Source of the DNA: Escherichia coli
GTDB lineage: Bacteria > Pseudomonadota > Gammaproteobacteria > Enterobacterales > Enterobacteriaceae
Direction: 5' to 3' (one strand)
DNA length: 64,000 nucleotides
NCBI RefSeq assembly: GCF_013122565.1
Contig: NZ_CP053258.1
Made by a program: the position numbers and the translations under genes
The notes under the pieces: generated by a model
What the model saw: the letters and a program-made list of their open reading frames with translations, nothing else
Databases searched by the model: none
Told to the model about the DNA's origin: nothing
Shown: positions 13,904 through 52,114 of the stretch, piece after piece
Layout: the number at the start of each line of letters is the position of its first letter
Numbering within the stretch: position 1 is the first letter of the stretch

Positions 13904-15448
13904 ATGGATGTCATTAAAAAGAAACATTGGTGGCAAAGCGACGCGCTGAAATGGTCAGTGCTAGGTCTGCTCGGCCTGCTGGTGGGTTACCTTGTTGTTT
14001 TAATGTACGCACAAGGGGAATACCTGTTCGCCATTACCACGCTGATATTGAGTTCAGCGGGGCTGTATATTTTCGCCAATCGTAAAGCCTACGCCTGGCG
14101 CTATGTTTACCCGGGAATGGCTGGAATGGGATTATTCGTCCTCTTCCCTCTGGTCTGCACCATCGCCATTGCCTTCACCAACTACAGCAGCACTAACCAG
14201 CTGACTTTTGAACGTGCGCAGGAAGTGTTGTTAGATCGCTCCTGGCAAGCAGGCAAAACCTATAACTTTGGTCTTTACCCGGCGGGCGATGAGTGGCAAC
14301 TGGCGCTCAGCGACGGCGAAACCGGCAAAAATTACCTCTCCGACGCGTTTAAATTTGGCGGCGAGCAAAAACTGCAACTGAAAGAAACGACCGCCCAGCC
14401 CGAAGGCGAACGCGCGAATCTGCGCGTGATTACCCAGAACCGCCAGGCGCTGAGTGACATTACCGCCATTCTGCCGGATGGCAACAAAGTGATGATGAGC
14501 TCCCTGCGCCAGTTTTCTGGCACGCAGCCGCTCTACACACTCGACGGTGACGGCACGTTGACGAATAATCAGAGTGGCGTGAAATATCGTCCGAATAACC
14601 AAATTGGCTTTTACCAGTCCATTACCGCCGACGGCAACTGGGGGGATGAAAAGCTAAGCCCCGGTTACACCGTGACCACCGGCTGGAAAAACTTTACCCG
14701 CGTCTTCACCGACGAAGGCATTCAGAAACCGTTCCTCGCCATTTTCGTCTGGACCGTGGTGTTCTCGCTAATCACTGTCTTTTTAACGGTGGCAGTCGGC
14801 ATGATTCTGGCGTGTCTGGTGCAGTGGGAAGCGTTGCGCGGCAAAGCGGTCTATCGCGTCCTGCTGATTCTGCCCTACGCGGTGCCATCGTTCATTTCAA
14901 TCTTGATTTTCAAAGGGTTGTTTAACCAGAGCTTCGGTGAGATCAACATGATGTTGAGCGCGCTGTTTGGCGTGAAGCCCGCCTGGTTCAGCGATCCGAC
15001 CACCGCCCGCACGATGCTGATTATCGTCAATACCTGGCTGGGTTATCCGTACATGATGATCCTCTGCATGGGCTTGCTGAAAGCGATTCCGGACGATTTG
15101 TATGAAGCCTCAGCAATGGATGGCGCAGGTCCGTTCCAGAACTTCTTTAAGATTACGCTGCCGCTGCTGATTAAACCGCTGACGCCGCTGATGATCGCCA
15201 GCTTCGCCTTTAACTTTAACAACTTCGTGCTGATTCAACTGTTAACCAACGGCGGCCCGGATCGTCTTGGCACGACCACGCCAGCCGGTTATACCGACCT
15301 GCTTGTTAACTACACCTACCGCATCGCTTTTGAAGGCGGCGGGGGTCAGGACTTCGGTCTGGCGGCAGCAATTGCCACGCTGATCTTCCTGCTGGTGGGT
15401 GCGCTGGCGATAGTGAACCTGAAAGCCACGCGAATGAAGTTTGATTAA
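13904..15448 (+). CDS. malF: Maltose ABC transporter permease
   Basis: ORF-track entry 13889-15448; start trimmed to ATG 13904 ([17 protein letters not shown]...), 514 aa. Confidence 0.95.
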
Positions 15449-15462
15449 GGGAGATAACAAAA

Positions 15463-16353
15463 ATGGCAATGGTCCAACCGAAATCGCAAAAAGCACGTTT
15501 GTTTATTACTCACCTGCTACTGCTACTTTTTATCGCGGCGATTATGTTCCCGCTGCTGATGGTCGTCGCTATCTCGCTGCGTCAGGGAAACTTCGCGACC
15601 GGTAGCCTGATCCCGGAGCAAATCTCCTGGGATCACTGGAAACTGGCGTTAGGTTTTAGCGTTGAACAGGCTGATGGTCGCATTACGCCACCGCCATTCC
15701 CGGTACTGCTGTGGCTGTGGAACTCGGTAAAGGTCGCCGGGATTTCCGCGATTGGCATTGTGGCGCTCTCCACCACCTGCGCCTACGCTTTCGCCCGTAT
15801 GCGCTTTCCAGGCAAAGCGACGCTGCTGAAAGGAATGCTGATTTTCCAGATGTTCCCGGCAGTACTTTCACTGGTCGCGTTGTATGCGTTGTTTGATCGT
15901 CTGGGTGAGTACATTCCATTCATTGGCCTGAATACTCACGGCGGCGTAATTTTCGCGTATCTGGGTGGGATTGCGCTGCACGTCTGGACCATCAAAGGCT
16001 ATTTCGAAACCATCGACAGTTCGCTGGAAGAAGCGGCTGCGCTGGATGGTGCGACACCGTGGCAGGCCTTCCGCCTTGTCCTGTTGCCGCTGTCAGTACC
16101 GATTCTGGCGGTGGTATTCATCCTGTCGTTTATCGCTGCCATTACTGAAGTTCCGGTCGCGTCGCTGTTACTGCGTGACGTAAACAGCTACACCCTGGCC
16201 GTGGGAATGCAGCAATACCTCAACCCGCAAAACTACCTGTGGGGTGACTTTGCCGCCGCTGCCGTGATGTCTGCATTACCGATCACCATCGTCTTCTTGC
16301 TGGCTCAACGCTGGCTGGTCAACGGCCTGACGGCAGGTGGTGTGAAAGGTTAA
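15463..16353 (+). CDS. malG: Maltose ABC transporter permease
   Basis: 296-aa [42 protein letters not shown]... Confidence 0.95.
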
Positions 16354-16423
16354 AGATGTTGTTCTGCCAATGTTATGCCGCTGCACCCTCAACTTACGTT
16401 ATCCCAACTTGTGACTGTTATTC

Positions 16424-16448
16424 GGCGCTCCACGGAGCGCCTTTTTTT
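16424..16448 (+). terminator. Rho-independent terminator after malG, overlapping the psiE 3' end
   Basis: ggcgctccacggagcgcc hairpin followed by ttttttt. Confidence 0.6.
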
Positions 16449-16857
16449 ACTCCCGCTTCAGCCGTTTCGAATTACACAGCCACAGGGTGATCACCAGTAA
16501 CAGGATCGCAGCTGAGTAGATCAACACATCCAGTGGCGATTTATGATCGACGATGATCAAGCGTACAATGGCGGTGATCCCAATATAGACAAAGTAACGT
16601 AGCGGGAAGTGAAAACCGGACTGAAAGTACTTCACAATCAGCGCGATAAATTCGAAATAGAGAAAATAAACCACCAGCCCTTCTACCAGCTCATATTTGC
16701 TGGTTTGTTCTGGCGCGAACAGCACATCAGCCAGATGCACCGTTTCTTTGCCGAGGAAGACAACCAAAATCAGGCCGAGGCACAACAGGCCAAGATTGAG
16801 TACGGTCTGCAAAATGGTGGAGATAAACTCCACGCGCGGACGAGAGAGTGACGTCAT
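16447..16857 (-). CDS. psiE: Phosphate-starvation-inducible protein E
   Basis: ORF-track entry 16447-16992; start trimmed to ATG 16855-16857 ([25 protein letters not shown]...), 136 aa. Confidence 0.9.
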
Positions 16858-17071
16858 AGCAGTACCTCCTTCACAGTGGCGAGCTTCCTGTATAACGCAA
16901 AAATGTGACGGAGATCTATATTTTTCGTGTATGTTTTGTTCAGCTCGATTAAGTGGGCATCTCCCATCAACGTCGCATCTGGCAAAACACACAGCCCCAA
17001 AAAATCACCCATTCAGGTGATTCCCAGCCACCAGCAATGCGCGAAAAATCGACAATGTTCCTCTGGAACAA

Positions 17072-17350
17072 ATGAAACGTAACCTGATAAAGGTGGTAAA
17101 AATGAAGCCTTATTTTGCTGCTTTGATGTTATCAGTCTCTGTTCTTCCTGCTTATGCTGGTCCGCTCGGTACTGCTGATAAAGCCGACCTACCGCAAAGC
17201 AATGTCTCCAGCCCAATGATGGCCCAGTCGCTCAGGCAACCAGACCTGCAACCGATATCGACGGACAGGAAGACAGAATGTTTTCGCCTTTACACACCAG
17301 ATCGCAAACCGGGGGTGAACTGCGTTCCTGATGGCTCAACAGGCCATTAA
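17072..17350 (+). CDS. yjbT: Small putative secreted protein
   Basis: 92-aa ORF with signal-peptide-like N-terminus (MKPYFAALMLSVSVLPAYA); RBS aaaggtgg precedes the internal ATG, so the start may be the first or second Met. Confidence 0.6.
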   Translation: MKRNLIKVVKMKPYFAALMLSVSVLPAYAGPLGTADKADLPQSNVSSPMMAQSLRQPDLQPISTDRKTECFRLYTPDRKPGVNCVPDGSTGH

Positions 17351-17396
17351 GAATGAGGGTGCCAGTGATTGCGAAAACTGGCACCTTTCCCATGAC

Positions 17397-19493
17397 TTAG
17401 CGGAAATTGACGCTACGGTCGCTGGTCATGTCATACAACTGGAACTTACGCCCAAGTTGCTGACCACCGTCACGAGTCAGCGGCGTCCAGCCAATCGCCG
17501 CACGGCTGCGTGTCGGGCCAGACGAGAAGAGATCCAACGGTACCGAGACATACACGCCTTTGGTGAAGTCCCCTTCGCCGTACTCCTCTTTCGAAACATT
17601 CGTGATCGTGGCATAGCCACCCACAACCACTCCGCTATCAAAGCGTTTGGCGATCTCCAGCGTGCCGCCTTTATCCCCTGCCAGATACTGCCCGACGCTC
17701 GCTTTCACTAACACATCCTGAGCGAAAGATGGCGTCCAGTAGGCGGTCAGATGTCCGGTTTTCACGCTGTAGTCGGTGAATTTCATCATATCTTTTGCAC
17801 TACGCCAGTCGCGCTGTTTAACGTAGTTGGCATCCAGACCAAACGCCCAGTTGCTGTCCAGCGGGCGATACAACACTTCTGCCCCCGCACCGCCAAACAT
17901 GGTTTCGAGATAACCTCCGTAGACCTGACCGTAGAAGCCGTTGCCCAGATGCTGGAAGTAGTTGGCTTGCAGGTTATTCACATAGACATCGTTCTGCACA
18001 TACTCGCGCACATGGGTACGAACGCGCGGTAAGTGCGAGTCCTGCGGCGGATTGGTGTAGTTAAACTTGTCGTAGTTGTTGGCAAGGTTAGCGAACAGGC
18101 TGCCGGTGGTCAGCAGATGGTCCGTCAGCCACAAATCTGCCGTTCCCATCACGCCCAGCTGATACATGTAAAAGTTTTCCGGGCCACCGACCGACTGGTT
18201 CAGCACCGGATCGATATGGAAATCAAAGCGCGATTTGTCGATATACCAGCCCTGCTCGGTGGACTGCGGAACCACTGGCTCGACGCGTTTTTGCGCCAGC
18301 GTCGTTTCGTGGCCCAACGGCTCTCCGGCGAGATGATTTTTCAGGCTGGCGACATCGGTTTCCGTCGTCACCTGCGGCATGTTAAGACGATTTTCCGTAA
18401 TGCGGATCGTTCTGATCCCATCCGGCAGATCGTTCATCACGATCCGATTAGCACGGATGATCCCTTCGCGCGAATCACGATATTTCACCTGCTCGCCGGT
18501 AACATACAGCGTATCGCCTTTCGCCTGGATCTGCGGATCGGCAAGTCCGGCGTTGTATTTCAGCAACGTTAACTGATTCGCCACCACCGAGTGCTGCAAA
18601 ATGGCATCCTGTGGCTGCGGTTGATATTGCGGGCGGACGTTATCGTTGTAGGACGGGCGCAGATCGTTAAAGTTGGTGCGCAGCGTGACGCCAAACATAA
18701 AGGTGTTGCCACGTTCATAACTAAGGTTAACGTCGGCCCAATCGGTAACGCGATAAATCGCACCGACGTTAAACTTACTTTTTTGCTGCAGCTTCCCGGC
18801 AAAATCCTGCTGATAATTATTGCCTTCATACTCCAGTTTCAGGCGCAGCGGTTGCCAGGGCGTCTGGTATTCCACGCCGCCAAACAGTGAGGCAGGACCG
18901 TGGAACATCTGACTACCGTCGATAGATCCCGCCTGTTTGTAGCTGTTATCGCGATAGCAATATTTATCACTGGCTGAACAGAGCGGATTTTTCACATTAC
19001 CGCTGGTGCCCAGATATCCCCAGCCCAGACCGAGCGTGAAATCGAACGGCCCCCAGGCTTTGCTGGCAACAAGATATTCCGCATCAAACAGCCCCGTACC
19101 GCCGATATCCCGCGCACCAACCGCCACTTGCGGCAGCCAGTAACTCTCTTCCCACAAACGCAGTTTGAGATCGAAGGCTTTATCTTTATACGTTTGATCG
19201 CCAGAGAATGCTTCGACGCTGCTGTACTGCCGGGTGCGCACGTCGGTGTAGCGCAGCGTTGTTTCCAGCCACGGGAAGAGTTGCACTGAAGCTGAGTAAT
19301 AACGGTACTGATCGTTGTCGCGATAGTTGAGGCTCAACTCCCCTTCCCGCGCCATGCGCGCGGTAGGCGTTTGTAATAATCCTACGCCACCGAAATCCGA
19401 CTGCGACGGACCAATGGGCGCAGGATATGTTTCGCCGTAGCAAGCTGTGCTAATGCCCAGCGCCAGTAAGCTAAGCAGATGTCTTTTTTTCAT
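17397..19493 (-). CDS. yjbH: Outer-membrane beta-barrel protein, GfcD family (exopolysaccharide-associated)
   Basis: 698-aa ORF with signal peptide [20 protein letters not shown]; last gene of yjbEFGH. Confidence 0.9.
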
Positions 19494-21628: not shown

Positions 21629-21712
<84 letters not shown>

Positions 21713-23614: not shown

Positions 23615-23880
23615 TAGCGCAGGCCAGAAGAGGCGCGTTGCCCAAGTAACGGTGTTGGAGGAGCCAGTCCTGTGATAACACCTGAGGGGGTGCATCGCCG
23701 AGGTGATTGAACGGCTGGCCACGTTCATCATCGGCTACAGGGGCTGAATCCCCTGGGTTGTCACCAGAAGCGTTCGCAGTCGGGCGTTTCGCAAGTGGTG
23801 GAGCACTTCTGGGTGAAAATAGTAGCGAAGTATCGCTCTGCGCCCACCCGTCTTCCGCTCTTCCCTTGTGCCAAGGCTGA
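23615..23880 (+). promoter_or_regulatory. Lysine riboswitch (L-box) in the lysC 5' leader
   Basis: About 300-nt untranslated leader upstream of lysC containing conserved segments (agaggcgc..ggaggag..gtgataa..ctgaatcccc..) matching the E. coli lysC leader as remembered. Confidence 0.75.
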
Positions 23881-25257: not shown

Positions 25258-25509
25258 ATACTGTATGGCCTGGAAGCTATATTTCGGGCCGTATTGATTT
25301 TCTTGTCACTATGCTCATCAATAAACGAGCCTGTACTCTGTTAACCAGCGTCTTTATCGGAGAATAATTGCCTTTAATTTTTTTATCTGCATCTCTAATT
25401 AATTATCGAAAGAGATAAATAGTTAAGAGAAGGCAAAATGAATATTATCAGTTCTGCTCGCAAACGAATTCCCGTACACTGAACTCTCTGGCTCACTGAG
25501 GGCACCATC

Positions 25510-25782
25510 ATGGCACTCCCCCGTATTACCCAAAAAGAGATGACTGAACGCGAGCAACGTGAACTTAAAACACTGCTGGATCGCGCGCGGATTGCGCATG
25601 GTCGCGTACTGACCAACTCCGAAACCAACAGCATTAAGAAAGAGTACATCGATAAATTAATGGTCGAGCGTGAGGCTGAAGCGAAAAAAGCCCGCCAGTT
25701 AAAGAAAAAGCAGGCTTATAAACCGGATCCTGAAGCGTCATTTAGCTGGTCAGCAAATACGTCGACGCGCGGCAGGCGCTGA
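25510..25782 (+). CDS. yjbD: DUF3811-family small protein
   Basis: 90-aa ORF MALPRITQKEMTEREQRELKTLLDRARIAHGRVL...; position between lysC and rluF matches K-12 synteny. Confidence 0.85.
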   Translation: MALPRITQKEMTEREQRELKTLLDRARIAHGRVLTNSETNSIKKEYIDKLMVEREAEAKKARQLKKKQAYKPDPEASFSWSANTSTRGRR

Positions 25783-26655
25783 TTAGCGCCCCTTCTTTTT
25801 ACGCCCCGGCGAGGTAAAACGCTTACCGTTGGACGCCGGGCGACCGCCTTTTTCCGCCGTTTTTTCCATCTTAACGACTGGACGTTTGATGCCTAACGTT
25901 TTCGGCTTGGCCTTCGCTTTAGGTTTTGCCTCGGAAGAGGAATTTTCGATGAGCTTAAAGAGGTCGATTAACTCATCGTCAGTTAAATCGCGCCACTCAC
26001 CCAGCGGAATGCCGCTTAAGCTGACGTTCATAATGCGCGTACGTTCCAGCTTTTTCACTTCGTAACCAAAGTGTTCGCACATGCGACGGATCTGACGGTT
26101 CAGCCCCTGCACCAGGGTAATGCGGAAGACAAACGGCGCTTCTTTTTTGACTTTGCACTTTTTCGTCACCGTCCCGAGGATCGGCACTCCCGCCCCCATA
26201 CCACGAATAAATTCATCGGTAATCGGTTTATCGACCGTCACCAGATACTCTTTCTCATGATCGTTACCCGCTCGGAGGATCTTATTCACCAGATCGCCGT
26301 GATTGGTGAGGAAAATCAGCCCCTGGGAGTCTTTATCCAGCCGGCCAATCGGGAACACGCGTTTGCTGTGGTTAACGAAATCGACAATGTTATCGCGCTC
26401 GCCATCTTCGGTGGTGCTGACAATACCGACGGGCTTGTTCAGGGCGATAAGTACCAAATCTTCGGCTTCCCGAGGCTCAATTAACTGACCGTTTACTTTC
26501 ACAACGTCGCCGGGTTTCACCTGATCGCCAATGGTGGCTCGCTTGCCATTAAGGAACACATTGCCTTGCTCGATATAGCGATCCGCTTCGCGGCGTGAGC
26601 AAATTCCGCTTTCGCTGATGTATTTATTTAAACGGACTGATGAGTCGGGCAGCAT
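25783..26655 (-). CDS. rluF: 23S rRNA pseudouridine synthase F
   Basis: 290-aa ORF with S4 domain and RsuA-type catalytic region; basic Lys-rich C-terminal tail. Confidence 0.93.
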
Positions 26656-27002
26656 AAATTCTCCTGTAAAACGCGGAATATACCGTACCTCTTAGCGGGG
26701 AAAAACAGGGTTATGCGGCAACGTCGAAATTAAATGTGATCTGCCACGCCTTTTATCACAAAAGTGTCTCCGGAAGTACGATGCAAATTTGCCTGGCAAA
26801 ATAAGGATAATCAACATATTACGAATCGCTGCACACCTGTGCTGATGACTACTACGCAGAGAAACAAATGTGCAAGAGAAAGCGCTATTTCTCCCCATGC
26901 AAAGAGTGAAAAATCGCTTTGAAAGGCCCTCATGATGGGGTTATATCAGATCAAGCGGTGAGAAAGCGTATTTGCACAGATGTGCAGAACCAGGAGGCGG
27001 CA

Positions 27003-27950
27003 ATGGAAAACAGTGACGATATCCGTTTGATTGTGAAGATTGCCCAACTCTATTACGAACAGGATATGACGCAGGCGCAAATCGCGCGCGAACTGGGTAT
27101 TTACCGCACCACCATCAGCCGCTTGCTTAAACGAGGCCGCGATCAGGGAATTGTCACCATCGCCATCAACTATGACTACAACGAAAATCTCTGGCTCGAG
27201 CAGCAACTGAAGCAAAAGTTTGGCCTGAAAGACGTTGTGGTGGTGTCGGGAAATGATGAGGATGAAGAGACTCAACTGGCGATGATGGGGTTACACGGCG
27301 CGCAACTGCTGGATCGCTTGCTGGAGCCTGGCGATATTGTCGGTTTTTCCTGGGGTCGCGCGGTGAGCGCACTGGTTGAAAACTTGCCGCAGGCGGGGCA
27401 ATCGCGGCAGTTAATCTGCGTACCAATTATTGGCGGACCGTCCGGTAAACTCGAAAGCCGCTATCACGTAAACACATTAACCTACAGCGCGGCAGCGAAG
27501 CTGAAAGGGGAATCGCATCTCGCGGATTTTCCGGCTCTGCTGGATAACCCATTAATTCGTAATGGGATCATGCAGTCTCAGCACTTTAAAACCATCTCTG
27601 CCTACTGGGATAATCTGGATGTCGCCCTGGTGGGAATTGGCTCACCGGCCATTCGCGACGGCGCTAACTGGCATGCGTTTTATGGTGGTGAAGAGAGTGA
27701 CGACCTGAATGCCCGCCAGGTTGCTGACGATATTTGCTCGCGCTTTTTTGATATTCACGGCGCAATGGTTGAAACGAATATGAGCGAAAAAACACTCTCT
27801 ATCGAAATGAATAAATTAAAGCAGGCGCGGTATTCCATTGGCATTGCCATGAGTGAAGAAAAATACAGCGGAATTGTTGGTGCACTGCGTGGAAAATATA
27901 TTAATTGTCTGGTAACGAATAGCAGCACAGCTGAACTATTACTGAAATAA
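27003..27950 (+). CDS. sorC: SorC-family transcriptional regulator of the sorbose operon
   Basis: ORF-track entry 26919-27950; start at ATG 27003 with RBS caggagg (MENSDDIRLIVKIAQLYYEQDMTQAQIAREL... HTH plus sugar-binding domain), 315 aa. Confidence 0.8.
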   Translation: MENSDDIRLIVKIAQLYYEQDMTQAQIARELGIYRTTISRLLKRGRDQGIVTIAINYDYNENLWLEQQLKQKFGLKDVVVVSGNDEDEETQLAMMGLHGAQLLDRLLEPGDIVGFSWGRAVSALVENLPQAGQSRQLICVPIIGGPSGKLESRYHVNTLTYSAAAKLKGESHLADFPALLDNPLIRNGIMQSQHFKTISAYWDNLDVALVGIGSPAIRDGANWHAFYGGEESDDLNARQVADDICSRFFDIHGAMVETNMSEKTLSIEMNKLKQARYSIGIAMSEEKYSGIVGALRGKYINCLVTNSSTAELLLK

Positions 27951-28019
27951 AAATCTTCCCGATGTTTACCGTAATAAAAATTACGGCGGGTCCCTATTAT
28001 CTAAAATCAGGAGTCTGTT

Positions 28020-28826
28020 ATGCAAACGTGGTTAAATTTGCAGGATAAAATCATTATCGTCACCGGCGGCGCATCCGGTATTGGTCTGGCGATTGTAGAG
28101 GAATTATTATCACAAGGCGCAAACGTACAGATGGTAGATATTCACGGTGGCGATGGTCAATATGAAGGTCATAAAGGCTATCAGTTTTGGCCGACCGATA
28201 TTTCCAGCGCCAAAGAGGTAAATCATACGGTAGCGGAAATTATTCAGCGTTTTGGTCGCATCGACGGTCTGGTCAATAACGCCGGGGTCAATTTCCCGCG
28301 TCTGCTGGTCGATGAGAAAGCGCCTGCCGGGCAGTATGAACTCAACGAAGCTGCATTCGAAAAAATGGTCAATATCAACCAGAAAGGCGTTTTTCTGATG
28401 TCGCAGGCGGTGGCGCGACAGATGGTCAAACAACATGATGGCGTGATTGTGAATGTTTCCTCAGAAAGTGGACTGGAAGGCTCAGAAGGCCAAAGCTGTT
28501 ACGCCGCTACCAAAGCCGCGCTCAATAGCTTCACGCGCTCCTGGTCGAAAGAATTGGGTAAACACGGTATCCGTGTGGTCGGTATCGCGCCCGGGATTCT
28601 GGAAAAAACCGGGCTACGCACGCCGGAATATGAAGAGGCGCTGGCGTGGACGCGCAATATCACCGTCGAGCAGCTGCGTGAAGGCTATACCAAAAACGCC
28701 ATTCCTATTGGGCGCGCCGGAAGATTAGCAGAAGTCGCTGATTTTGTTTGTTATCTGCTGTCTGAACGCGCCAGCTACATCACCGGAGTAACCACTAACA
28801 TTGCGGGCGGCAAAACACGCGGATAA
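28020..28826 (+). CDS. sorD: Short-chain dehydrogenase, sorbitol(glucitol)-6-phosphate dehydrogenase type
   Basis: 268-aa SDR with TGGASGIGLA Rossmann motif and YxxxK catalytic motif; RBS aggag. Confidence 0.8.
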   Translation: MQTWLNLQDKIIIVTGGASGIGLAIVEELLSQGANVQMVDIHGGDGQYEGHKGYQFWPTDISSAKEVNHTVAEIIQRFGRIDGLVNNAGVNFPRLLVDEKAPAGQYELNEAAFEKMVNINQKGVFLMSQAVARQMVKQHDGVIVNVSSESGLEGSEGQSCYAATKAALNSFTRSWSKELGKHGIRVVGIAPGILEKTGLRTPEYEEALAWTRNITVEQLREGYTKNAIPIGRAGRLAEVADFVCYLLSERASYITGVTTNIAGGKTRG

Positions 28827-28835
28827 GGAGGCTTT

Positions 28836-29243
28836 ATGGTCAACGCCATTTTTTGTGCCCACGGCAAATTAGCTTGCGCCATGCTGGAATCGGTTCAGAT
28901 GGTTTACGGCAACGCCAATGTTGAAGCCGTTGAATTTGTGCCCGGTGAAAACGCCGGAGACATCGTAGCAAAGCTGGAAAAGTTAGTAAGCATTCACAAT
29001 CAAGATGAGTGGCTGATTGCCGTGGATTTACAGTGCGGCAGCCCGTGGAATGCGGCAGCGATGCTTGCGATGCGCAATCCTCGTCTGCGGGTAATCAGCG
29101 GCCTTGCTCTGCCGCTGGCGCTCGAACTGGTTGATAACCAGGACAGCATGAATGTTGATGAACTGTGTGAACACCTGACGCAAATCGCAAAGCAATCCTG
29201 CGTCGTCTGGAGACAGGTGGCAACGGCAGAGGAGGATTTCTGA
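28836..29243 (+). CDS. sorF: PTS mannose/sorbose-family EIIA component
   Basis: 135-aa ORF MVNAIFCAHGKLACAMLESVQMVYG...; RBS aaggagg. Confidence 0.8.
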   Translation: MVNAIFCAHGKLACAMLESVQMVYGNANVEAVEFVPGENAGDIVAKLEKLVSIHNQDEWLIAVDLQCGSPWNAAAMLAMRNPRLRVISGLALPLALELVDNQDSMNVDELCEHLTQIAKQSCVVWRQVATAEEDF

Positions 29244-29737
29244 TGAACATTACGCTCGCCCGCATTGATGACCGCCTGATCCACGGTCAGGTCACTACCG
29301 TCTGGTCGAAAGTGGCTAACGCCCAGCGCATTATTATCTGCAATGACGAAGTTTATAACGATGAAGTTCGCCGGACATTATTGCGTCAGGCTGCGCCACC
29401 GGGAATGAAGGTTAACGTGGTCAATATTGAAAAAGCCGTCGCTGTTTATCACAACCCGCAATATCAGGACGAAACCGTTTTTTATCTTTTTACTCGCCCA
29501 CAGGATGCCTTAGCGATGGTTCGCCAGGGGGTAAAAATAGGCACCCTGAATATTGGCGGCATGGCCTGGCGGCCCGGTAAAAAACAGTTAACCAAAGCGG
29601 TTTCATTAGATGATGATGATATTAACGCATTTCATGAGTTAAATAATCTTGGTGTCATACTGGATTTACGCGTCGTAGCGTCAGATCCCTCAATCAATAT
29701 TATCGACAAAATAAACGAACAGTTAATCGCAAATTAA
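29243..29737 (+). CDS. sorB: PTS mannose/sorbose-family EIIB component
   Basis: 164-aa ORF MNITLARIDDRLIHGQVTTVW...; start overlaps the sorF stop (TGATG). Confidence 0.8.
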   Translation: MNITLARIDDRLIHGQVTTVWSKVANAQRIIICNDEVYNDEVRRTLLRQAAPPGMKVNVVNIEKAVAVYHNPQYQDETVFYLFTRPQDALAMVRQGVKIGTLNIGGMAWRPGKKQLTKAVSLDDDDINAFHELNNLGVILDLRVVASDPSINIIDKINEQLIAN

Positions 29738-29802
29738 ATAATAGCGCCTGTGTACATATGCTTTAACAGGCAGGGATGACGACACTTAAAAGGTGACAAA
29801 TC

Positions 29803-30591
29803 ATGGAAATAAGTACCCTACAAATCATTGCTATATTTCTTTTTTCCTGTATTGCCGGAATGGGCAGTGTGCTGGATGAATTTCAGACTCATCGCCCGTT
29901 AATTGCCTGTACGGTGATTGGTTTAATTCTCGGTGATTTAAAAACCGGAATAATACTCGGTGGTACGCTGGAATTGATAGCTCTCGGCTGGATGAACGTC
30001 GGCGCGGCACAATCTCCGGATTCTGCACTCGCCAGCATAATCTCCGCCATTCTGGTTATCGTTGGTCAGCAAAGCATCGCCACCGGAATCGCCATCGCGT
30101 TGCCTGTGGCTGCGGCAGGCCAGGTGCTGACGGTGTTTGCCCGTACCATCACCGTAGTGTTCCAGCACGCGGCGGATAAAGCAGCGGAAGAAGCACGGTT
30201 TCGCACTCTCGATATTCTGCATGTCTCCGCGCTTGGCGTGCAGGCGCTGCGCGTTGCTATTCCGGCACTGATTGTCTCGCTGTTCGTCAGCGCCGATATG
30301 GTCAGCAATATGTTAAACGCCATTCCCGAATTTGTGACCCGAGGTCTGCAAATTGCTGGCGGTTTTATCGTGGTGGTCGGTTACGCCATGGTGCTACGTA
30401 TGATGGGCGTGAAATATTTGATGCCTTTCGGTTTCCTCGCAGGTGGCTACCTCGATCTCAGTCTGCTGGCGTTCGGTGGCGTCGGCGTGATCATGGCCCT
30501 GGTCTACATCCAGCTAAATCCACAGTGGCGTAAAGCTGAACCTCAACTCCAGGCCACCGCCTCCACCGCCCTTGACCAACTTGACGATTAA
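29803..30591 (+). CDS. sorA: PTS mannose/sorbose-family EIIC component
   Basis: 262-aa hydrophobic ORF MEISTLQIIAIFLFSCIAGMGSVLDEF... Confidence 0.8.
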   Translation: MEISTLQIIAIFLFSCIAGMGSVLDEFQTHRPLIACTVIGLILGDLKTGIILGGTLELIALGWMNVGAAQSPDSALASIISAILVIVGQQSIATGIAIALPVAAAGQVLTVFARTITVVFQHAADKAAEEARFRTLDILHVSALGVQALRVAIPALIVSLFVSADMVSNMLNAIPEFVTRGLQIAGGFIVVVGYAMVLRMMGVKYLMPFGFLAGGYLDLSLLAFGGVGVIMALVYIQLNPQWRKAEPQLQATASTALDQLDD

Positions 30592-30601
30592 CGGAGCCAT
30601 C

Positions 30602-31426
30602 ATGGAACAGAGAAAAATTACACGCAGCGATCTGGTGAGCATGTTTCTGCGCTCCAACCTGCAACAGGCGTCCTTTAACTTTGAACGTATTCACGGGCTG
30701 GGTTTTTGCTACGACATGATCCCCGCCATCAAGCGACTTTACCCATTAAAAGAGGATCAGGTTGCGGCGCTCAGGCGACACCTGGTGTTCTTTAATACCA
30801 CGCCAGCCGTATGTGGCCCGGTCATCGGCGTCACTGCCGCCATGGAAGAGGCGCGGGCCAACGGCGCGGAAATTGATGACGGTACCATTAACGGCATCAA
30901 AGTCGGCCTGATGGGACCGTTGGCAGGGGTTGGCGATCCACTGGTCTGGGGAACGCTGCGCCCGATTACCGCCGCGCTCGGCGCATCTCTGGCACTTTCT
31001 GGCAACATCCTCGGCCCGCTTTTGTTTTTCTTTATTTTCAATGCGGTGCGTCTGGCGATGAAGTGGTATGGCCTACAGCTCGGCTTTCGCAAAGGGGTGA
31101 ATATCGTCAGCGATATGGGCGGGAATGTGCTGCAAAAACTCACCGAAGGCGCGTCGATTCTCGGACTGTTTGTGATGGGCGTGCTGGTGACCAAATGGAC
31201 GTCAATCAACGTACCGTTGGTGGTTTCACAAACGCATGCCGCCGATGGCTCCACCGTCACCATGACCGTGCAGAACATTCTCGACCAACTTTGCCCTGGT
31301 TTGCTGGCGCTCGGTCTGACGCTACTAATGGTTCGTCTGCTCAACAAAAAAATTAACCCGGTATGGCTGATTTTCGCCCTGTTTGGCTTAGGGATTATCG
31401 GCAATGCGCTGGGCTTCCTGTCCTGA
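30602..31426 (+). CDS. sorM: PTS mannose/sorbose-family EIID component
   Basis: ORF-track entry 30572-31426; start at ATG 30602 with RBS acggag (MEQRKITRSDLVSMFLRSNLQQASFNFERIHGLGF...), 274 aa. Confidence 0.8.
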   Translation: MEQRKITRSDLVSMFLRSNLQQASFNFERIHGLGFCYDMIPAIKRLYPLKEDQVAALRRHLVFFNTTPAVCGPVIGVTAAMEEARANGAEIDDGTINGIKVGLMGPLAGVGDPLVWGTLRPITAALGASLALSGNILGPLLFFFIFNAVRLAMKWYGLQLGFRKGVNIVSDMGGNVLQKLTEGASILGLFVMGVLVTKWTSINVPLVVSQTHAADGSTVTMTVQNILDQLCPGLLALGLTLLMVRLLNKKINPVWLIFALFGLGIIGNALGFLS

Positions 31427-31477
31427 TTCTTCGCCCCGGCACGACTGCCGGGGCCATCGCTCAACATGAGGTGGTTT

Positions 31478-32707
31478 ATGAAAACAACAGCTCTGCGTCT
31501 TTATGGTAAACGTGATTTACGCCTGGAAACCTTTGATCTTCCTGAAATGCAGGAGGATGAAATCCTCGCGACGGTGGTCACTGACAGCCTGTGCCTCTCT
31601 TCCTGGAAAGAGGCCAACCTGGGTGAAAACCATAAAAAAGTACCCGACGATGTGGCGACCAACCCCATCATCATCGGCCACGAGTTTTGCGGCGATATTC
31701 TGGCCGTGGGTAAAAAGTGGCAGCACAAATTTCAGCCGGGCCAGCGCTATGTGATTCAGGCCAACCTGCAATTGCCGGATCGCCCGGACTGCCCCGGCTA
31801 CTCCTTCCCGTGGGTGGGCGGTGAAGCCACACATGTGGTTATCCCAAATGAGGTTATGGAACAAGATTGCCTGCTGGCATACGACGGCGAAACCTATTTT
31901 GAAGGCTCGCTGGTTGAACCGCTTTCCTGCGTGATTGGCGCGTTCAACGCCAACTATCATCTTCAGGAAGGTAGTTATAACCACACGATGGGGATTCGCC
32001 CGCAAGGGCGCACGCTGATCCTCGGCGGCACCGGACCAATGGGACTGTTGGCGATTGATTATGCGCTGCATGGACCAGTTAACCCGTCGCTGCTCGTCAT
32101 TACCGATACCGACAACGACAAATTGAGTTATGCGCGCAAGTACTATCCATCAGAACCGCAAACACTGATTCATTATCTCAATGCCGCCGATGCAGCATTT
32201 GGTACGTTAATGGCACTGAGTGGCGGTCACGGCTTCGATGATATTTTCGTCTTTGTGCCTAATGAAGGACTGGTGACTCTCGCCTCTTCCTTGCTGGCGA
32301 CAGATGGTTGCCTGAATTTCTTCGCCGGACCGCAGGATAAACATTTCAGCGCGCCAATTAATTTCTACGATGTGCATTATGCATTTACCCACTACGTGGG
32401 CACGTCAGGCGGCAATACCGACGACATGCGCGCGGCGGTCAAACTGATCGAAGAGAAAAAAGTGCAGGCCGCAAAAGTGGTAACACATATTCTTGGGCTG
32501 AATGCCGCGGGCGAAACCACGCTTGAATTGCCTGCCGTCGGCGGCGGCAAAAAGCTGGTGTATACCGGGAAATACCTGCCGCTGACGTCACTCACGCAGA
32601 TTCAGGATCAAGCACTGGCGGCGATTCTGGCGCGTCATCAGGGGATCTGGTCCGGTGAGGCGGAGCAATACCTGCTCGCCCATGCAGAAGCAATTTCCCA
32701 TGATTAA
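31478..32707 (+). CDS. sorE: Zn-dependent MDR-family dehydrogenase, sorbose-1-phosphate reductase type
   Basis: ORF-track entry 31466-32707; start at ATG 31478 with RBS gaggtgg (MKTTALRLYGKRDLRLETF...GHEFCGDI...), 409 aa. Confidence 0.8.
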   Translation: MKTTALRLYGKRDLRLETFDLPEMQEDEILATVVTDSLCLSSWKEANLGENHKKVPDDVATNPIIIGHEFCGDILAVGKKWQHKFQPGQRYVIQANLQLPDRPDCPGYSFPWVGGEATHVVIPNEVMEQDCLLAYDGETYFEGSLVEPLSCVIGAFNANYHLQEGSYNHTMGIRPQGRTLILGGTGPMGLLAIDYALHGPVNPSLLVITDTDNDKLSYARKYYPSEPQTLIHYLNAADAAFGTLMALSGGHGFDDIFVFVPNEGLVTLASSLLATDGCLNFFAGPQDKHFSAPINFYDVHYAFTHYVGTSGGNTDDMRAAVKLIEEKKVQAAKVVTHILGLNAAGETTLELPAVGGGKKLVYTGKYLPLTSLTQIQDQALAAILARHQGIWSGEAEQYLLAHAEAISHD

Positions 32708-32865
32708 TCGCGCTACTTAACTCTGCATGTCGCTGGCTGGTCGCCGCGGCAACTTCGCGACCTGATGTGCGGCTGATTGCAGAAGCGGCACAATGTGCAC
32801 GAGAAGGATAAAAAACATCAGCGCCTTAAGGGGCGCTCAAATTGGTAGCAAAGTGCACATTGTTT

Positions 32866-32975
32866 ATGCCGGATGCGGAATGAAGCCTTATTCGGTCTAC
32901 ATAATTTTGAAAATTCAATATATTGCAGTTATCTGGTAGGCCTGGTAAGCGTAGCGCATCAGGCAATGCTGTGTT
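32866..32975. repeat. REP elements between sorE and pepE
   Basis: gccggatgcggaatgaagccttattcggtctaca ... taggcctggtaagcgtagcgcatcaggca. Confidence 0.6.
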
Positions 32976-33088
32976 TGTCATCAGTCTCAGCGCCCGGTGC
33001 AATACGTGACATCGTGAGCCATGTCAGTAAGTGGTTAAATTCGCAGTGGTAGCATTCCTTCCGTGATTTCTTGCTAACCGGAGAAGTA

Positions 33089-33778
33089 ATGGAACTGCTT
33101 TTATTGAGTAACTCGACGCTGCCGGGTAAAGCCTGGCTGGAACATGCACTGCCGCTAATTGCTGAACAGTTGCAGGGTCGCCGCTCAGCGGTGTTTATCC
33201 CTTTCGCTGGCGTAACGCAGACCTGGGATGATTACACAGAGAAAACGGCTGCGGTTCTCGCTCCGCTGGGTGTTTCTGTCACCGGTATTCATAGCGTTGT
33301 CGATCCCGTTGCCGCGATTGAAAATGCTGAGATCGTGATTGTCGGCGGCGGGAATACTTTCCAGTTGCTGAAACAGTGCCGCGAGCGCGGGCTGCTGGCA
33401 CCAATTACTGACGTGGTTAAACGTGGCGCACTGTATATTGGTTGGAGCGCAGGCGCTAACCTTGCTTGCCCAACCATTCGTACCACCAACGATATGCCGA
33501 TTGTCGATCCGCAAGGTTTCGATGCGCTGAATCTGTTCCCGCTGCAAATCAACCCGCACTTCACCAACGCGCTGCCGGAAGGCCATAAAGGTGAAACCCG
33601 TGAACAGCGTATTCGCGAACTGCTGGTCGTCGCGCCAGAACTCACAATTATTGGTCTACCGGAAGGTAACTGGATCACAGTGAGTAAAGGTCACGCAACG
33701 CTGGGTGGCCCGAACACCACTTATGTGTTTAAGGCTGGTGAAGAAGCGGTTCCGCTGGAAGCGGGTCACCGTTTTTAA
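33089..33778 (+). CDS. pepE: Peptidase E (alpha-aspartyl dipeptidase)
   Basis: ORF-track entry 33071-33778; start at ATG 33089 ([29 protein letters not shown]...), 229 aa. Confidence 0.93.
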
Positions 33779-33784
33779 ATGAAT

Positions 33785-33857
33785 TGCCGGATGCATGATC
33801 CGGCATCTTGTTCATAGTGCCTGATGCGACGCTTTACGCGTCTTATCAGGCCTACAG
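33785..33857. repeat. REP element between pepE and yjbB
   Basis: gccggatgcatgatccggca ... gcctgatgcgacgctttacgcgtcttatcaggcctaca. Confidence 0.6.
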
Positions 33858-33867
33858 GGTCACGGTA

Positions 33868-35499
33868 TTAATACTCGTCCCGTCCTTCATCTTCATCCGG
33901 CTGTTCCAGCACACTGTAAGCCACCGAACAAAACAGCGAGTTCAGACGCTGCATATCTCCCAGTAAGCCTAAATGTAGCGAACTGGTTTCAATGCTCTGC
34001 ACGTTTTGCTGATGCAGGCGATCGACGTGGGCGTGGGAATAGCGGCGATTAAGAATGCGAAAGCGATGCTTGCTGCGGCGCAAACGACGGGCGCTGGTAA
34101 CATCACCAGAGAAGAAAACCGACATTGCCAGTTTTAAATTACTGAGCAATTGCTCATAGAGCGCATCCAGTTCCTTCAAGCCATCAAGCGAAAATGCCCG
34201 CCGTGCTGCCAGCGATTTATCGGCAATTTCGCTCCCCATGCGCTCGACGATATCGGAGGCCTGTTCAAGGTTGAGCGACATTTCGATGATCTCCGCCCAG
34301 CGGCGCGACTCTTCCTCCGCCAGCTCTTCTTTTGGCATCCGCGCCAGATACAGCTTAATGGCGGTATAGAGAACGTTGATATCATCTGCCAGTTTACGCA
34401 GCTCTTTCTCCTGCCGTGGCTCGCCGTGCATCACTTTATTCAGCCCTTCCATCATCTGTTCCATGGCGTCGCCAATGCGCAGGGTTTCGCGCGCGGCGTT
34501 CGCCAGAGCAAGCGTGGGCGTATCCAGCGCGCTGACATCCAGATGTTTGGGCCGTAGCTGGGTATCCAGTTCCGGTTCATCGCGAATAATCGTTTTGCAA
34601 AACCGTGCCATCGGGTCAACAAATGGCAGCATGACCAGGCAACGTACAAGGTTGTAGAAGACGTGGAAATAGATCACCAGTTCCGCTTTTGGCAATGACA
34701 ACTTCCCCATTGTCTCTGCCAGCAAATGGACAAACGGCAGGATAATCAGGCTACCCACCAGCTTAAACAGCAAACTACCCAGCGCGACACGGCGGGCTGC
34801 GGCATTGGCGGCACTGTTGTTGAGCATCGCCAGCAGGCCGGAACCGAGGTTAGCACCAATCACCAGACAGAGCGCCACGGGGAAGGAGATAATGCCTGCG
34901 GCGGTCAGAGTCGCAGTCAGCAGTACAGCAGCAAGGCTGGAGTAGCTGATAATGGCGAACATCGCGCCAATCAGCGCATCCAGCAGAATATCGCCGGTCA
35001 GCGAGGCAAAGATCACCTGAACGCCGTTTGCCTGGGTGATCGGCGTTACGGCCTGCACAATCAACTCCAGCGCCAGCAAAATCAGCCCAAGACCAATACC
35101 GACGCGGCCCAGTTGCCCGGCGCGTGACTGTTTGCGTCCGAGGAAAAAAATCACGCCGATAAAAATAAGTAACGGTGACAGCCAGGATAAGTCGAAGGTG
35201 AGAATACGCGCCATTAGCGCCGTCCCGACATCTGCCCCCAGCACAATGACCAGAGCCGGTGCGAGGGCTACCAGATCCTGAGCGACGAACGAGGTCACCA
35301 GCATGGTGGTGGCATTACTGCTCTGTACCAGTGCGGTAACGCCGATCCCCGCGCAAAAGGCGAGCGGCTTTTTTTCGACGCTCCGGCTAAGGACAGTACG
35401 CAAACGCGCGCCGAAGACGCGCATTACGCCGGTTCGAACAATATGAGTCCCCCAGACCAGCAGGGCGACGGCAGAAAGCAGGTGAAGCAGCGTTAACAC
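33868..35499 (-). CDS. yjbB: Na/Pi-cotransporter-family membrane protein with PhoU-like domain
   Basis: 543-aa ORF MLTLLHLLSAVALLVWGTHIVRTGVMRVFGARLRTVL... Confidence 0.9.
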   Translation of the reverse strand: MLTLLHLLSAVALLVWGTHIVRTGVMRVFGARLRTVLSRSVEKKPLAFCAGIGVTALVQSSNATTMLVTSFVAQDLVALAPALVIVLGADVGTALMARILTFDLSWLSPLLIFIGVIFFLGRKQSRAGQLGRVGIGLGLILLALELIVQAVTPITQANGVQVIFASLTGDILLDALIGAMFAIISYSSLAAVLLTATLTAAGIISFPVALCLVIGANLGSGLLAMLNNSAANAAARRVALGSLLFKLVGSLIILPFVHLLAETMGKLSLPKAELVIYFHVFYNLVRCLVMLPFVDPMARFCKTIIRDEPELDTQLRPKHLDVSALDTPTLALANAARETLRIGDAMEQMMEGLNKVMHGEPRQEKELRKLADDINVLYTAIKLYLARMPKEELAEEESRRWAEIIEMSLNLEQASDIVERMGSEIADKSLAARRAFSLDGLKELDALYEQLLSNLKLAMSVFFSGDVTSARRLRRSKHRFRILNRRYSHAHVDRLHQQNVQSIETSSLHLGLLGDMQRLNSLFCSVAYSVLEQPDEDEGRDEY

Positions 35500-35651
35500 G
35501 AGTTCAGGTTCTCCTTATCGTTATATGTTCCTGAAGCAATTGAATGACCAAAGGACCGGAAACACGCTGACTGGCATCTTTACTGTGCCTTTTGACATTC
35601 GTTTTTCCGGCTAAGATTATTCCAGCCTGTTTCCAGTATAAGTGTTTCATA

Positions 35652-35687
35652 TTAATAAAGAGACAGGGCACTCATTGAGCGCCCTGT
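35652..35687 (-). terminator. Probable rho-independent terminator downstream of metH
   Basis: Minus-strand RNA forms acagggcgctcaatgagtgccctgt hairpin followed by a U-rich tract. Confidence 0.5.
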
Positions 35688-35718
35688 TTGTTGTAAGGAA
35701 AAGTGACAGATTTGTGAA

Positions 35719-39402
<3,684 letters not shown>

Positions 39403-39601
39403 ACTTGCTCCCGACACGCTCAACCCAGATTTAATAAAAATTCAACAAACCATACTGGCATAAACGCATCTGTGGTAAAAGCAACCACTACCCAACATGA
39501 GATTTGTTCAACATTAACTCATCGGATCAGTTCAGCAACTATTGCATTAGCTAACAATAAAAATGAAAATGATTTCCACGATACAGAAAAAGGAGACTGT
39601 C

Positions 39602-40426
39602 ATGGTCGCACCCATTCCCGCGAAACGCGGCAGAAAACCCGCCGTTGCCACCGCACCAGCGACTGGACAGGTTCAGTCTTTAACGCGTGGCCTGAAATTA
39701 CTGGAGTGGATTGCCGAATCCAATGGCAGTGTGGCACTCACGGAACTGGCGCAACAAGCCGGGTTACCCAATTCCACGACCCACCGCCTGCTAACCACGA
39801 TGCAACAGCAGGGTTTCGTGCGTCAGGTCGGCGAACTGGGACATTGGGCAATCGGCGCACATGCCTTTATGGTCGGCAGCAGCTTTCTCCAGAGCCGTAA
39901 TTTGTTAGCAATTGTTCACCCTATCCTGCGCAATTTAATGGAAGAGTCTGGCGAAACGGTCAATATGGCGGTGCTTGATCAAAGCGATCACGAAGCGATT
40001 ATTATCGACCAGGTACAGTGTACGCATCTGATGCGAATGTCCGCGCCTATCGGCGGTAAATTGCCGATGCACGCTTCCGGTGCGGGTAAAGCCTTTTTAG
40101 CCCAACTGAGCGAAGAACAGGTGACGAAGCTGCTGCACCGCAAAGGGTTACATGCCTATACCCACGCAACGCTGGTGTCTCCTGTGCATTTAAAAGAAGA
40201 TCTCGCCCAAACGCGCAAACGGGGTTATTCATTTGACGATGAGGAACATGCGCTGGGGCTACGTTGCCTTGCAGCGTGTATTTTCGATGAGCACCGTGAA
40301 CCGTTTGCCGCAATTTCTATTTCCGGACCGATTTCACGTATTACCGATGACCGCGTGACCGAGTTTGGCGCGATGGTGATTAAAGCGGCGAAGGAAGTGA
40401 CGCTGGCCTATGGCGGGATGCGGTGA
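39602..40426 (+). CDS. iclR: Glyoxylate-shunt repressor IclR
   Basis: ORF-track entry 39563-40426; start at ATG 39602 with RBS aaaggag (MVAPIPAKRGRKPAVATAPATGQVQSLTRGLKLLEW...), 274 aa. Confidence 0.95.
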   Translation: MVAPIPAKRGRKPAVATAPATGQVQSLTRGLKLLEWIAESNGSVALTELAQQAGLPNSTTHRLLTTMQQQGFVRQVGELGHWAIGAHAFMVGSSFLQSRNLLAIVHPILRNLMEESGETVNMAVLDQSDHEAIIIDQVQCTHLMRMSAPIGGKLPMHASGAGKAFLAQLSEEQVTKLLHRKGLHAYTHATLVSPVHLKEDLAQTRKRGYSFDDEEHALGLRCLAACIFDEHREPFAAISISGPISRITDDRVTEFGAMVIKAAKEVTLAYGGMR

Positions 40427-40442
40427 CATTTTCGCTTCTGAT

Positions 40443-42167
<1,725 letters not shown>

Positions 42168-47109: not shown

Positions 47110-47229
47110 ATGCCTGGCAGTTCCCTACTCTCGCATGGGGAGACCCCACACTACCATCGGCGCTACGGCGTTTCACTTCTGAGTTCGGCATGGGGTCAGG
47201 TGGGACCACCGCGCTACGGCCGCCAGGCA
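47110..47229 (-). rRNA. rrfE: 5S ribosomal RNA
   Basis: 120-nt reverse complement matches the E. coli 5S sequence (ugccuggcggccguagcgcggugg...gggaacugccaggcau). Confidence 0.95.
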
Positions 47230-47323
47230 AATTCTGTTTTATTAACCCGCTTATCGCCGGTTAATGTAATCTGTATCAGGCTGAAAATCTTCTCTCAATC
47301 CGCCAAAACATCTTCGGCGTTGT

Positions 47324-50227
<2,904 letters not shown>

Positions 50228-50411
50228 TCACAACCCGAAGATGTTTCACTTCAGAGTTGCGAAAATTTGAGAGACTCACGAACAACATTCGTTGTTCAGT
50301 GTTTCAATTTTCAGCTTGATCCAGATTTTTAAAGAGCAAATATCTCAAACATCACCCGAAGATGAGTTTTGAGATATTGAGGTCGGCGACTTTCACTCAC
50401 AAACCAGCAAG

Positions 50412-50487
50412 TGGCGTCCCCTAGGGGATTCGAACCCCTGTTACCGCCGTGAAAGGGCGGTGTCCTGGGCCTCTAGACGAAGGGGAC
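50412..50487 (-). tRNA. gltV: tRNA-Glu (UUC) in the 16S-23S spacer
   Basis: 76-nt reverse complement gtccccttcgtctagaggcccaggacaccgccctttcacggcggtaacaggggttcgaatcccctaggggacgcca. Confidence 0.95.
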
Positions 50488-50572
50488 GTATCAGTCTGCT
50501 TCGCAAGACGCCTTGCTTTTCACTTTCTATCAGACAATCTGTGTGAGCACTGCAAAGTACAGTTCTTTAAGG

Positions 50573-52114
<1,542 letters not shown>

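Follow-up and report, generated by a model that had tools for sequence, protein, structure and literature searches.

The interval between rluF and pepE in a 64,000-nucleotide stretch of Escherichia coli DNA (NCBI RefSeq assembly GCF_013122565.1, contig NZ_CP053258.1; this whole stretch is called the window below) is almost certainly the chromosomal L-sorbose operon sorCDFBAME, orthologous to the operon of Klebsiella pneumoniae. In the list of open reading frames (ORFs), the gap between rluF (minus strand) and pepE (plus strand) is filled by seven co-directional plus-strand ORFs that specify, in order, a regulator, a short-chain dehydrogenase/reductase (SDR), the IIA, IIB, IIC and IID components of a phosphotransferase system (PTS) and a medium-chain dehydrogenase/reductase (MDR), which is the annotated order in both E. 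coli and K. pneumoniae. In E. coli this operon is already known: it was cloned and mapped in 1992, its function was verified in strain CFT073 in 2010, and a survey of 2025 covered more than 40,000 genomes. What is added here are minor refinements, namely an ancestral locus lost in K-12, a remnant of the gene sdhL, a private deletion in SorA and candidate SorC operators.

None of the seven genes contains an internal stop codon, and both NCBIfam models and RefSeq annotation bear out the families named in an earlier reading of the sequence (the original prediction), that is, a regulator, an SDR enzyme, four enzyme II (EII) components and an MDR enzyme. The first gene, sorC (27003-27950, +), encodes a 315-amino-acid (aa) SorC-family regulator with an N-terminal helix-turn-helix and a sugar-binding domain, matched by a SorC/DeoR-type NCBIfam model; its start is the ATG at 27003, not that of the longer TTG-initiated ORF at 26919, and its top PDB match is K. 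pneumoniae SorC (2W48), with ~87% identity over 315/315 residues (E = 1.8e-182). Next comes sorD (28020-28826, +; 268 aa), an SDR-type D-glucitol(sorbitol)-6-phosphate dehydrogenase (NF004817, 501 bits against a cut-off of 304) whose translation shows TGGASGIG and YAATK motifs. The four PTS subunits are encoded by sorF (EIIA-Sor; 28836-29243, +; 135 aa; TIGR00824, 147 bits against a cut-off of 98), with His9 in CAHG; by sorB (EIIB-Sor; 29243-29737, +; 164 aa; TIGR00854, 223 bits), whose start overlaps the sorF stop and whose His14 lies in RLIHGQ; by sorA (EIIC-Sor; 29803-30591, +; 262 aa; TIGR00822, 409 bits); and by sorM (EIID-Sor; 30602-31426, +; 274 aa; TIGR00828, 472 bits). All four score above the cut-offs of mannose/fructose/sorbose-class PTS models, the class-specific IID model included, and the top PDB match of SorB is the K. 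pneumoniae IIB-Sor structure 1NRZ (~85-87% identity, E = 5.6e-91). The last gene, sorE (31478-32707, +; 409 aa), encodes an MDR-type L-sorbose-1-phosphate reductase with a GHEFCG zinc-ligand motif; RefSeq gives the orthologous E. coli gene this same name, and distant structural matches are to sorbitol dehydrogenase and ketose reductase. The catalytic and phosphorylation motifs known for these families (the IIA and IIB histidines, SDR TGxxxGxG and YxxxK, and the MDR GHE zinc motif) are thus all present. Opposite the highly conserved sorM there is also an antisense ORF of 236 aa (30757-31467, −), which we took to be spurious as a gene.

Measured against a K. pneumoniae record in which the operon is annotated, protein identities are 87.0% for SorC, 87.7% for SorD, 70.4% for SorF, 84.8% for SorB, 91.4% for SorA, 95.3% for SorM and 85.6% for SorE. 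With this 70-95% identity across the seven proteins, the same gene order and the same adjacency to rluF, orthology is established, and the proposed match in order and sizes to the sorCDFBAME operon of Klebsiella and E. coli stands. The two loci differ at their far ends and in one subunit: K. pneumoniae has an intact sdhL after sorE and no pepE there, while in the window sdhL is reduced to a remnant and SorA is three residues shorter. When the seven genes are compared with another E. coli allele, 69 codon differences are synonymous and 10 non-synonymous, indicating that the sor genes are under purifying selection. The SorM protein is identical to that of another E. coli genome (L001), and the exact SorF protein recurs in many E. 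coli assemblies, at loci that are 98.0-98.5% identical to the window; the exact SorE protein has no record in a large assembly collection.

Within E. coli, the sor regions of CFT073 (c4981-c4987), 042, sequence type (ST) 131 and ST648 are one and the same locus as that in the window, down to the junctions and primer sites. The locus has been described in strain 042 (PMC2808357), as well as in ST131 and ST648, where knock-outs and a knock-in were made (PMC12817954), and an amplicon of c4981-c4987 from CFT073 enabled DH5alpha to grow on L-sorbose (PMC2831201). Since the cloning primers of that study match the window at 26661-26684 and 32708-32737, the verified CFT073 fragment is co-extensive with the interval analysed here. 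At the DNA level E. coli genomes are 97-98% identical to the window. No complete E. coli genome is less than 1.7% different from it over the interval, and it also has its private SorA deletion.

By analogy with the pathway summarised in PMC13410766, the four-subunit mannose-class PTS permease would take up L-sorbose and phosphorylate it to L-sorbose-1-phosphate, with the phosphate relayed from HPr by SorF (IIA) and then SorB (IIB) to the sugar in the SorA/SorM (IIC/IID) membrane complex. SorE would then reduce L-sorbose-1-phosphate to D-glucitol-6-phosphate, which SorD would oxidise to fructose-6-phosphate for use in glycolysis. SorC, the product of the first gene, would serve as both repressor and activator of the operon in response to sorbose, a dual role that is credited to Wöhrl et al. 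1990 where that work is cited in PMC12817954 and PMC2943609.

The operon is flanked on the left by rluF, for 23S rRNA pseudouridine 2604 synthase (25783-26655, −; NF007784 equivalog, 606 bits, full length), and on the right by pepE, for dipeptidase E (33089-33778, +; NF003642, 357 bits), and the seven co-directional genes predicted between them are borne out by both the ORFs and NCBIfam. The predicted span of 26656-32980 is right for the locus but not for its extent: in the alignment of the rluF-pepE interval to K-12, the segment that sets the sor+ haplotype apart from the K-12 sor-minus one runs from 26691 to 33007, with 6317 base pairs (bp) facing a 95-bp filler, and the first 35 bp of the rluF-sorC spacer are common to K-12. 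As had also been claimed, K-12 is without the operon and has rluF and pepE adjacent; in the K-12 derivative DH1 the two genes are spaced 211 bp apart and the sor genes are absent. To the right of the operon, metH and iclR follow at a distance of 3-7 kb, so that the position agrees with the expected place of sor on the genetic map and with the 1992 mapping paper, the title of which, as cited in PMC9836092, puts the sor genes 'near metH and iclR'.

The whole locus is present at the rluF-pepE site in 2865 of 5426 complete E. coli genomes, in keeping with its predicted strain-variable presence, and rluF and pepE are adjacent in the remaining ones, DH1 included. A published survey found the operon in 9.6% of phylogroup A and 12.1% of phylogroup B1 genomes, and at above 86% in each of the other phylogroups (PMC12817954). 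A search of plasmids for the sor region returned only chromosome-like records mislabelled as plasmids. Across genera, which were surveyed by a SorE scan of one genome per species and then by blastn, the operon lies between rluF on one side and pepE/yjbB/metH on the other in E. whittamii, in two further non-coli Escherichia lineages, in Pseudocitrobacter, in several Citrobacter, in Klebsiella grimontii and in Raoultella, and likewise in K. pneumoniae; the E. albertii contig starts inside the operon, leaving the pepE/yjbB side alone visible. Synteny of the form rluF-sor-(sdhL)-(pepE)-yjbB-metH extends over at least 10 species in 5 genera. Because site and collinear spacer are shared across genera, the locus predates their divergence and its absence from K-12 is a loss; sor is ancestral at this site in Enterobacteriaceae, was inherited vertically and has been lost by K-12 and about half of E. 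coli.

Two side observations concern individual relatives. In Pseudocitrobacter (L004/L005), identity to the window is 89-90% over yjbD-rluF-sor (25452-32757) and 81% over pepE-yjbB (33080-35529), a contrast that may reflect either inter-genus exchange of the sor block or unequal constraint. In the E. albertii type strain, an indel breaks the sorE alignment (L041 2230-2272) and loci of similar identity have stronger tblastn E-values, and sorE may be a pseudogene there.

The sor-minus spacer itself carries some information about the loss. All 211 of its 211 bp agree between DH1 and STEC316 (only these two strains were compared), the latter being an unrelated sor-minus isolate from raw beef, and this fits a single loss event followed by spread of the resulting haplotype. 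A clean deletion scar in K-12 was considered and rejected, the 95-bp filler having no significant similarity to the sor region (best local score 10, against a shuffle mean of 12); a global alignment that placed pieces of the filler in the 3' end of sorE was, given this non-significant score, discarded as over-fitted. At the positionally homologous place, the first ~31 bp of the filler are similar to the spacer next to rluF in Citrobacter sor loci (score 16 against a shuffle maximum of 16), as a decayed remnant would be, but the likeness is no more than suggestive.

Two alternative accounts of what the operon is and how it came to lie here were weighed against these data. The permease genes could belong to another PTS cluster of the mannose family (aga, manXYZ, fructoselysine or the like) with unrelated dehydrogenases, a reading favoured by the fact that the IIA-IID matches are limited to generic mannose/fructose/sorbose subfamily models; E. 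coli ManXYZ (6K1H) is of the same class (IIA, IIB, IIC, IID), and SorA aligns with it over 258 residues (E = 2e-98). However, scores against the equivalog models for Aga and ManXYZ fall well short of the cut-offs (for example, AgaW 135 against 300 and ManX IIAB 211 against 400), and ManXYZ is a paralogue at a different locus, with IIA and IIB fused in ManX and with neither linked dehydrogenases nor a SorC regulator, whereas the proteins encoded here closely match their K. pneumoniae Sor counterparts, among them SorC and IIB-Sor, whose structures are solved, and the orthologous CFT073 fragment was verified experimentally (PMC2831201). With sub-cut-off equivalog scores and Sor orthology, an aga or manXYZ identity was ruled out, and we give any other cluster of this family practically no chance; the original prediction had named better matches to another mannose-family PTS, or the same genes in K-12, as findings that would overturn it, and neither was found. 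The same prediction had called the operon an islet, implying gain, and it might have been acquired horizontally in some lineages of E. coli, by insertion into an rluF-pepE spacer like that of K-12, as its presence/absence polymorphism within the species, a K-12 filler that does not consist simply of parts of the sor+ sequence and the hint of inter-genus exchange in the Pseudocitrobacter identities (~90% for rluF-sor against 81% for pepE-yjbB) would allow. Yet there is no integrase or insertion sequence among the ORFs of the interval, as the prediction itself had stated, nor a tRNA or direct-repeat footprint, and its G+C content of 0.41-0.58 is like that of the flanks; the same position and ~348-bp spacer architecture recur in Klebsiella, Raoultella, Citrobacter, Pseudocitrobacter and four other Escherichia lineages; the operon prevails in all phylogroups but A and B1; and both the Citrobacter-like start of the filler and the sor-minus junction shared by DH1 and STEC316 point the same way. 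Status as a genomic island was rejected as well (no mobility ORFs, flank-like G+C, a site held by sor in 5 genera), and we consider an acquired islet very improbable; the cross-genus synteny speaks instead for an ancestral locus that K-12 has lost.

A third account accepts the operon as sor and questions whether it works in this strain. The SorA of the window has 262 aa rather than 265, an in-frame 9-bp deletion at 30427/30428 having removed FFL and turned the motif YLMPFFFLGFLAGG into YLMPFGFLAGG. Sorbose transport by this allele may be impaired in the source strain, and three findings weigh against a working permease: the motif YLxPFF(F/Y)LGF is full length, and hence length-invariant, in 52/52 SorA homologues (the fetched loci, from Enterobacteriaceae, Gilliamella, Enterococcus and Anaerostipes) and in E. 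coli ManY (6K1H); a 50-mer spanning the deletion junction has 0 matches in the 5426 E. coli genomes; and the exact 262-aa protein has no record in the large assembly collection. The operon could accordingly be present but cryptic, the deletion inactivating or crippling the permease and leaving the strain sorbose-negative. Natural inactivations elsewhere lend this some weight, namely independent damage to sorC, frameshifted in E. coli OkiPb01695 (L001 2804-3752), and to sorB, truncated to 94 aa in E. coli GCA_961209495.1 (L086 6408-6692), along with the sorbose-negative Shigella that retain sor genes, in so far as these are cited by PMC2831201. On the other side, the deletion is in frame and could be an assembly error, the effect of losing three residues from a membrane helix is unpredictable from sequence, and all other sor genes are intact and under strong purifying selection, so that any inactivation would have to be very recent. 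We regard a cryptic operon as possible, though less likely than not. The predicted 'complete' operon therefore holds for the seven canonical genes, and needs qualifying for the three residues missing from SorA and for sdhL, which is reduced to a remnant.

The control region of the operon would be the 347-bp intergenic segment between rluF and sorC (26656-27002, +), which contains invariant blocks in a 12-species alignment. This spacer, ~348 bp long, is collinear in Escherichia, Pseudocitrobacter, Citrobacter, Klebsiella and Raoultella, with K. pneumoniae sharing the same conserved boxes; three of the aligned species have an extra insertion directly beside rluF. From left to right, the alignment shows a conserved TGTGATC box at 26735, an invariant block CACAAAAGTG at 26757-26766, a palindrome TGCACAccTGTGC at 26830-26842, whose half-sites and spacing are conserved across genera as an inverted repeat and which is a candidate SorC operator (operator 1), and a nearly invariant box CAAATGTGCAA at 26865-26875 (+) that resembles an operator half-site. 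The TGTGATC box has a poor second half-site, and no canonical CRP site was seen. Further downstream, a putative sor promoter was picked out by eye at 26918-26946 (+), with TTTGAA (26918-26923) as −35 and TTATAT (26941-26946) as −10 element separated by a 17-nucleotide spacer, and it sits within the invariant blocks GAAAAT..CTTTG and GGGGTTATATCAGATCA. It is followed by a second palindrome, TTTGCACAgATGTGCA (26971-26986), which is invariant in the 12 species and lies as candidate operator 2 between the putative promoter and the ribosome-binding site AGGAGG (26992-26997) upstream of the sorC ATG. The pattern TGCACA-NN-TGTGC has only two matches in the 64-kb window, at 26830-26842 and 26973-26985, so that the palindromes lie ~143 bp apart and flank the putative promoter on both sides.

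Two points count against this regulatory layout, in that a simple consensus promoter scan missed the proposed promoter and the palindromes are assigned as operators by conservation and position; a consensus scan of the interval for promoters and terminators gave nothing above shuffled expectation. As reported in 2010, DeoR was the sole member of the SorC family besides CggR with an identified DNA site (PMC2943609), which means that SorC's own site was unmapped as of that year. That the palindromes are SorC operators bridged by a SorC tetramer and that, in addition, the FFL deletion is a natural permease knock-out is a combined proposal that we find quite possible, if somewhat short of likely.

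Downstream of sorE, alignment with E. whittamii and other Escherichia in which the gene is an intact 272 aa revealed a ~110-bp remnant of an eighth gene, the shikimate-5-dehydrogenase-like sdhL (32700-32811, +). Its 5' part is 57 bp long (32700-32756) and reads MINRAT*, with an in-frame TAA at 32718-32720; its 3' part, joined at ~32757, comprises the last ~55 bp of the gene and ends in TAA at 32809-32811. About 700 bp of the body are deleted, in typical sor+ E. coli exactly as in the window. In other Escherichia species and in Klebsiella, intact sdhL encodes 270-272 aa of the shikimate 5-dehydrogenase family (NF009202, 463 bits) and its ATG overlaps the sorE stop. Intact copies are also found in 177 of the 5426 complete E. 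coli genomes, the ST648-type strains, unlike in the window, and the gene beside the operon in ST648 has been described as 'sdhL' and as induced together with it (PMC12817954). Comparison of these loci indicates that sdhL was ancestrally the eighth gene after sorE and was lost separately in most E. coli through the ~700-bp internal deletion. In E. coli JNEC-KY178, which has intact sdhL (L091 9719-12468), sdhL-pepE-yjbB is 91.7% identical to the window and the flanks are 97-98% identical, and this part appears to have come from a non-coli Escherichia.

Between the sdhL remnant and pepE lies a pair of repetitive extragenic palindromic (REP)-like elements in inverted orientation, at 32868-32900 and 32936-32964, an arrangement like that of a bacterial interspersed mosaic element. 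The elements match the REP consensus; the E. whittamii copy is canonical, and E. albertii has 3-4 copies of the unit (L041 3543-4030).

The surroundings of the operon appear to be mosaic. Over the sor-metH interval the best identity to any complete E. coli genome is 97.3-98.3%, and sor-metH-aceK (25700-42167) is 1.7-2.7% diverged from the closest of the 5426 genomes, while malG-psiE (15400-17500) is 99.1-99.8% identical to ordinary E. coli. Cryptic Escherichia clades are 91-94% identical to the window, and the differences private to it cluster in sorA-sorE. Judged from these identities, Shigella or a cryptic Escherichia clade, both considered as the source, were set aside, and the window is a mosaic E. 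coli with a locally divergent, probably recombinant, segment. Several features differ from other strains. No xylE separates malG from psiE (16354-17396), psiE following malG directly, as it does in 1785 complete E. coli genomes, strain 042 included; K-12 carries xylE at this place. The iclR-aceK gap is only 16 bp (40427-40442) and is without the arpA/EspL4 (ShET2/EspL2-family) gene that the best-matching E. coli genomes carry there. K-12 has an insert of ~132 bp between yjbD and rluF (L002 1582-1713) that is absent from the window and from many E. coli, and in the window yjbD ends directly beside the rluF stop (25782/25783). Rfam matches in the window are a lysine riboswitch before lysC (23620-23816), a complete rrn operon with an internal tRNA (47112-52114) and three naRNA4 (REP325-type) elements (9585-9655, 13814-13884 and 21633-21704).

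The absence of sor from K-12 is textbook strain variation, and the operon has little value as a discovery. It is currently discussed as a virulence factor (PMC13410766) and as a fitness/virulence marker of extraintestinal pathogenic E. coli lineages, and given the SorA variant a sequence-based call of the source strain as 'sor-positive' needs caution. At this one locus the window brings out decay in three stages, with the whole operon lost in K-12, sdhL lost in most E. coli and a private in-frame deletion in SorA here. If the operator assignment is true, the two-palindrome arrangement would provide a concrete architecture for the dual behaviour of SorC as repressor and activator.

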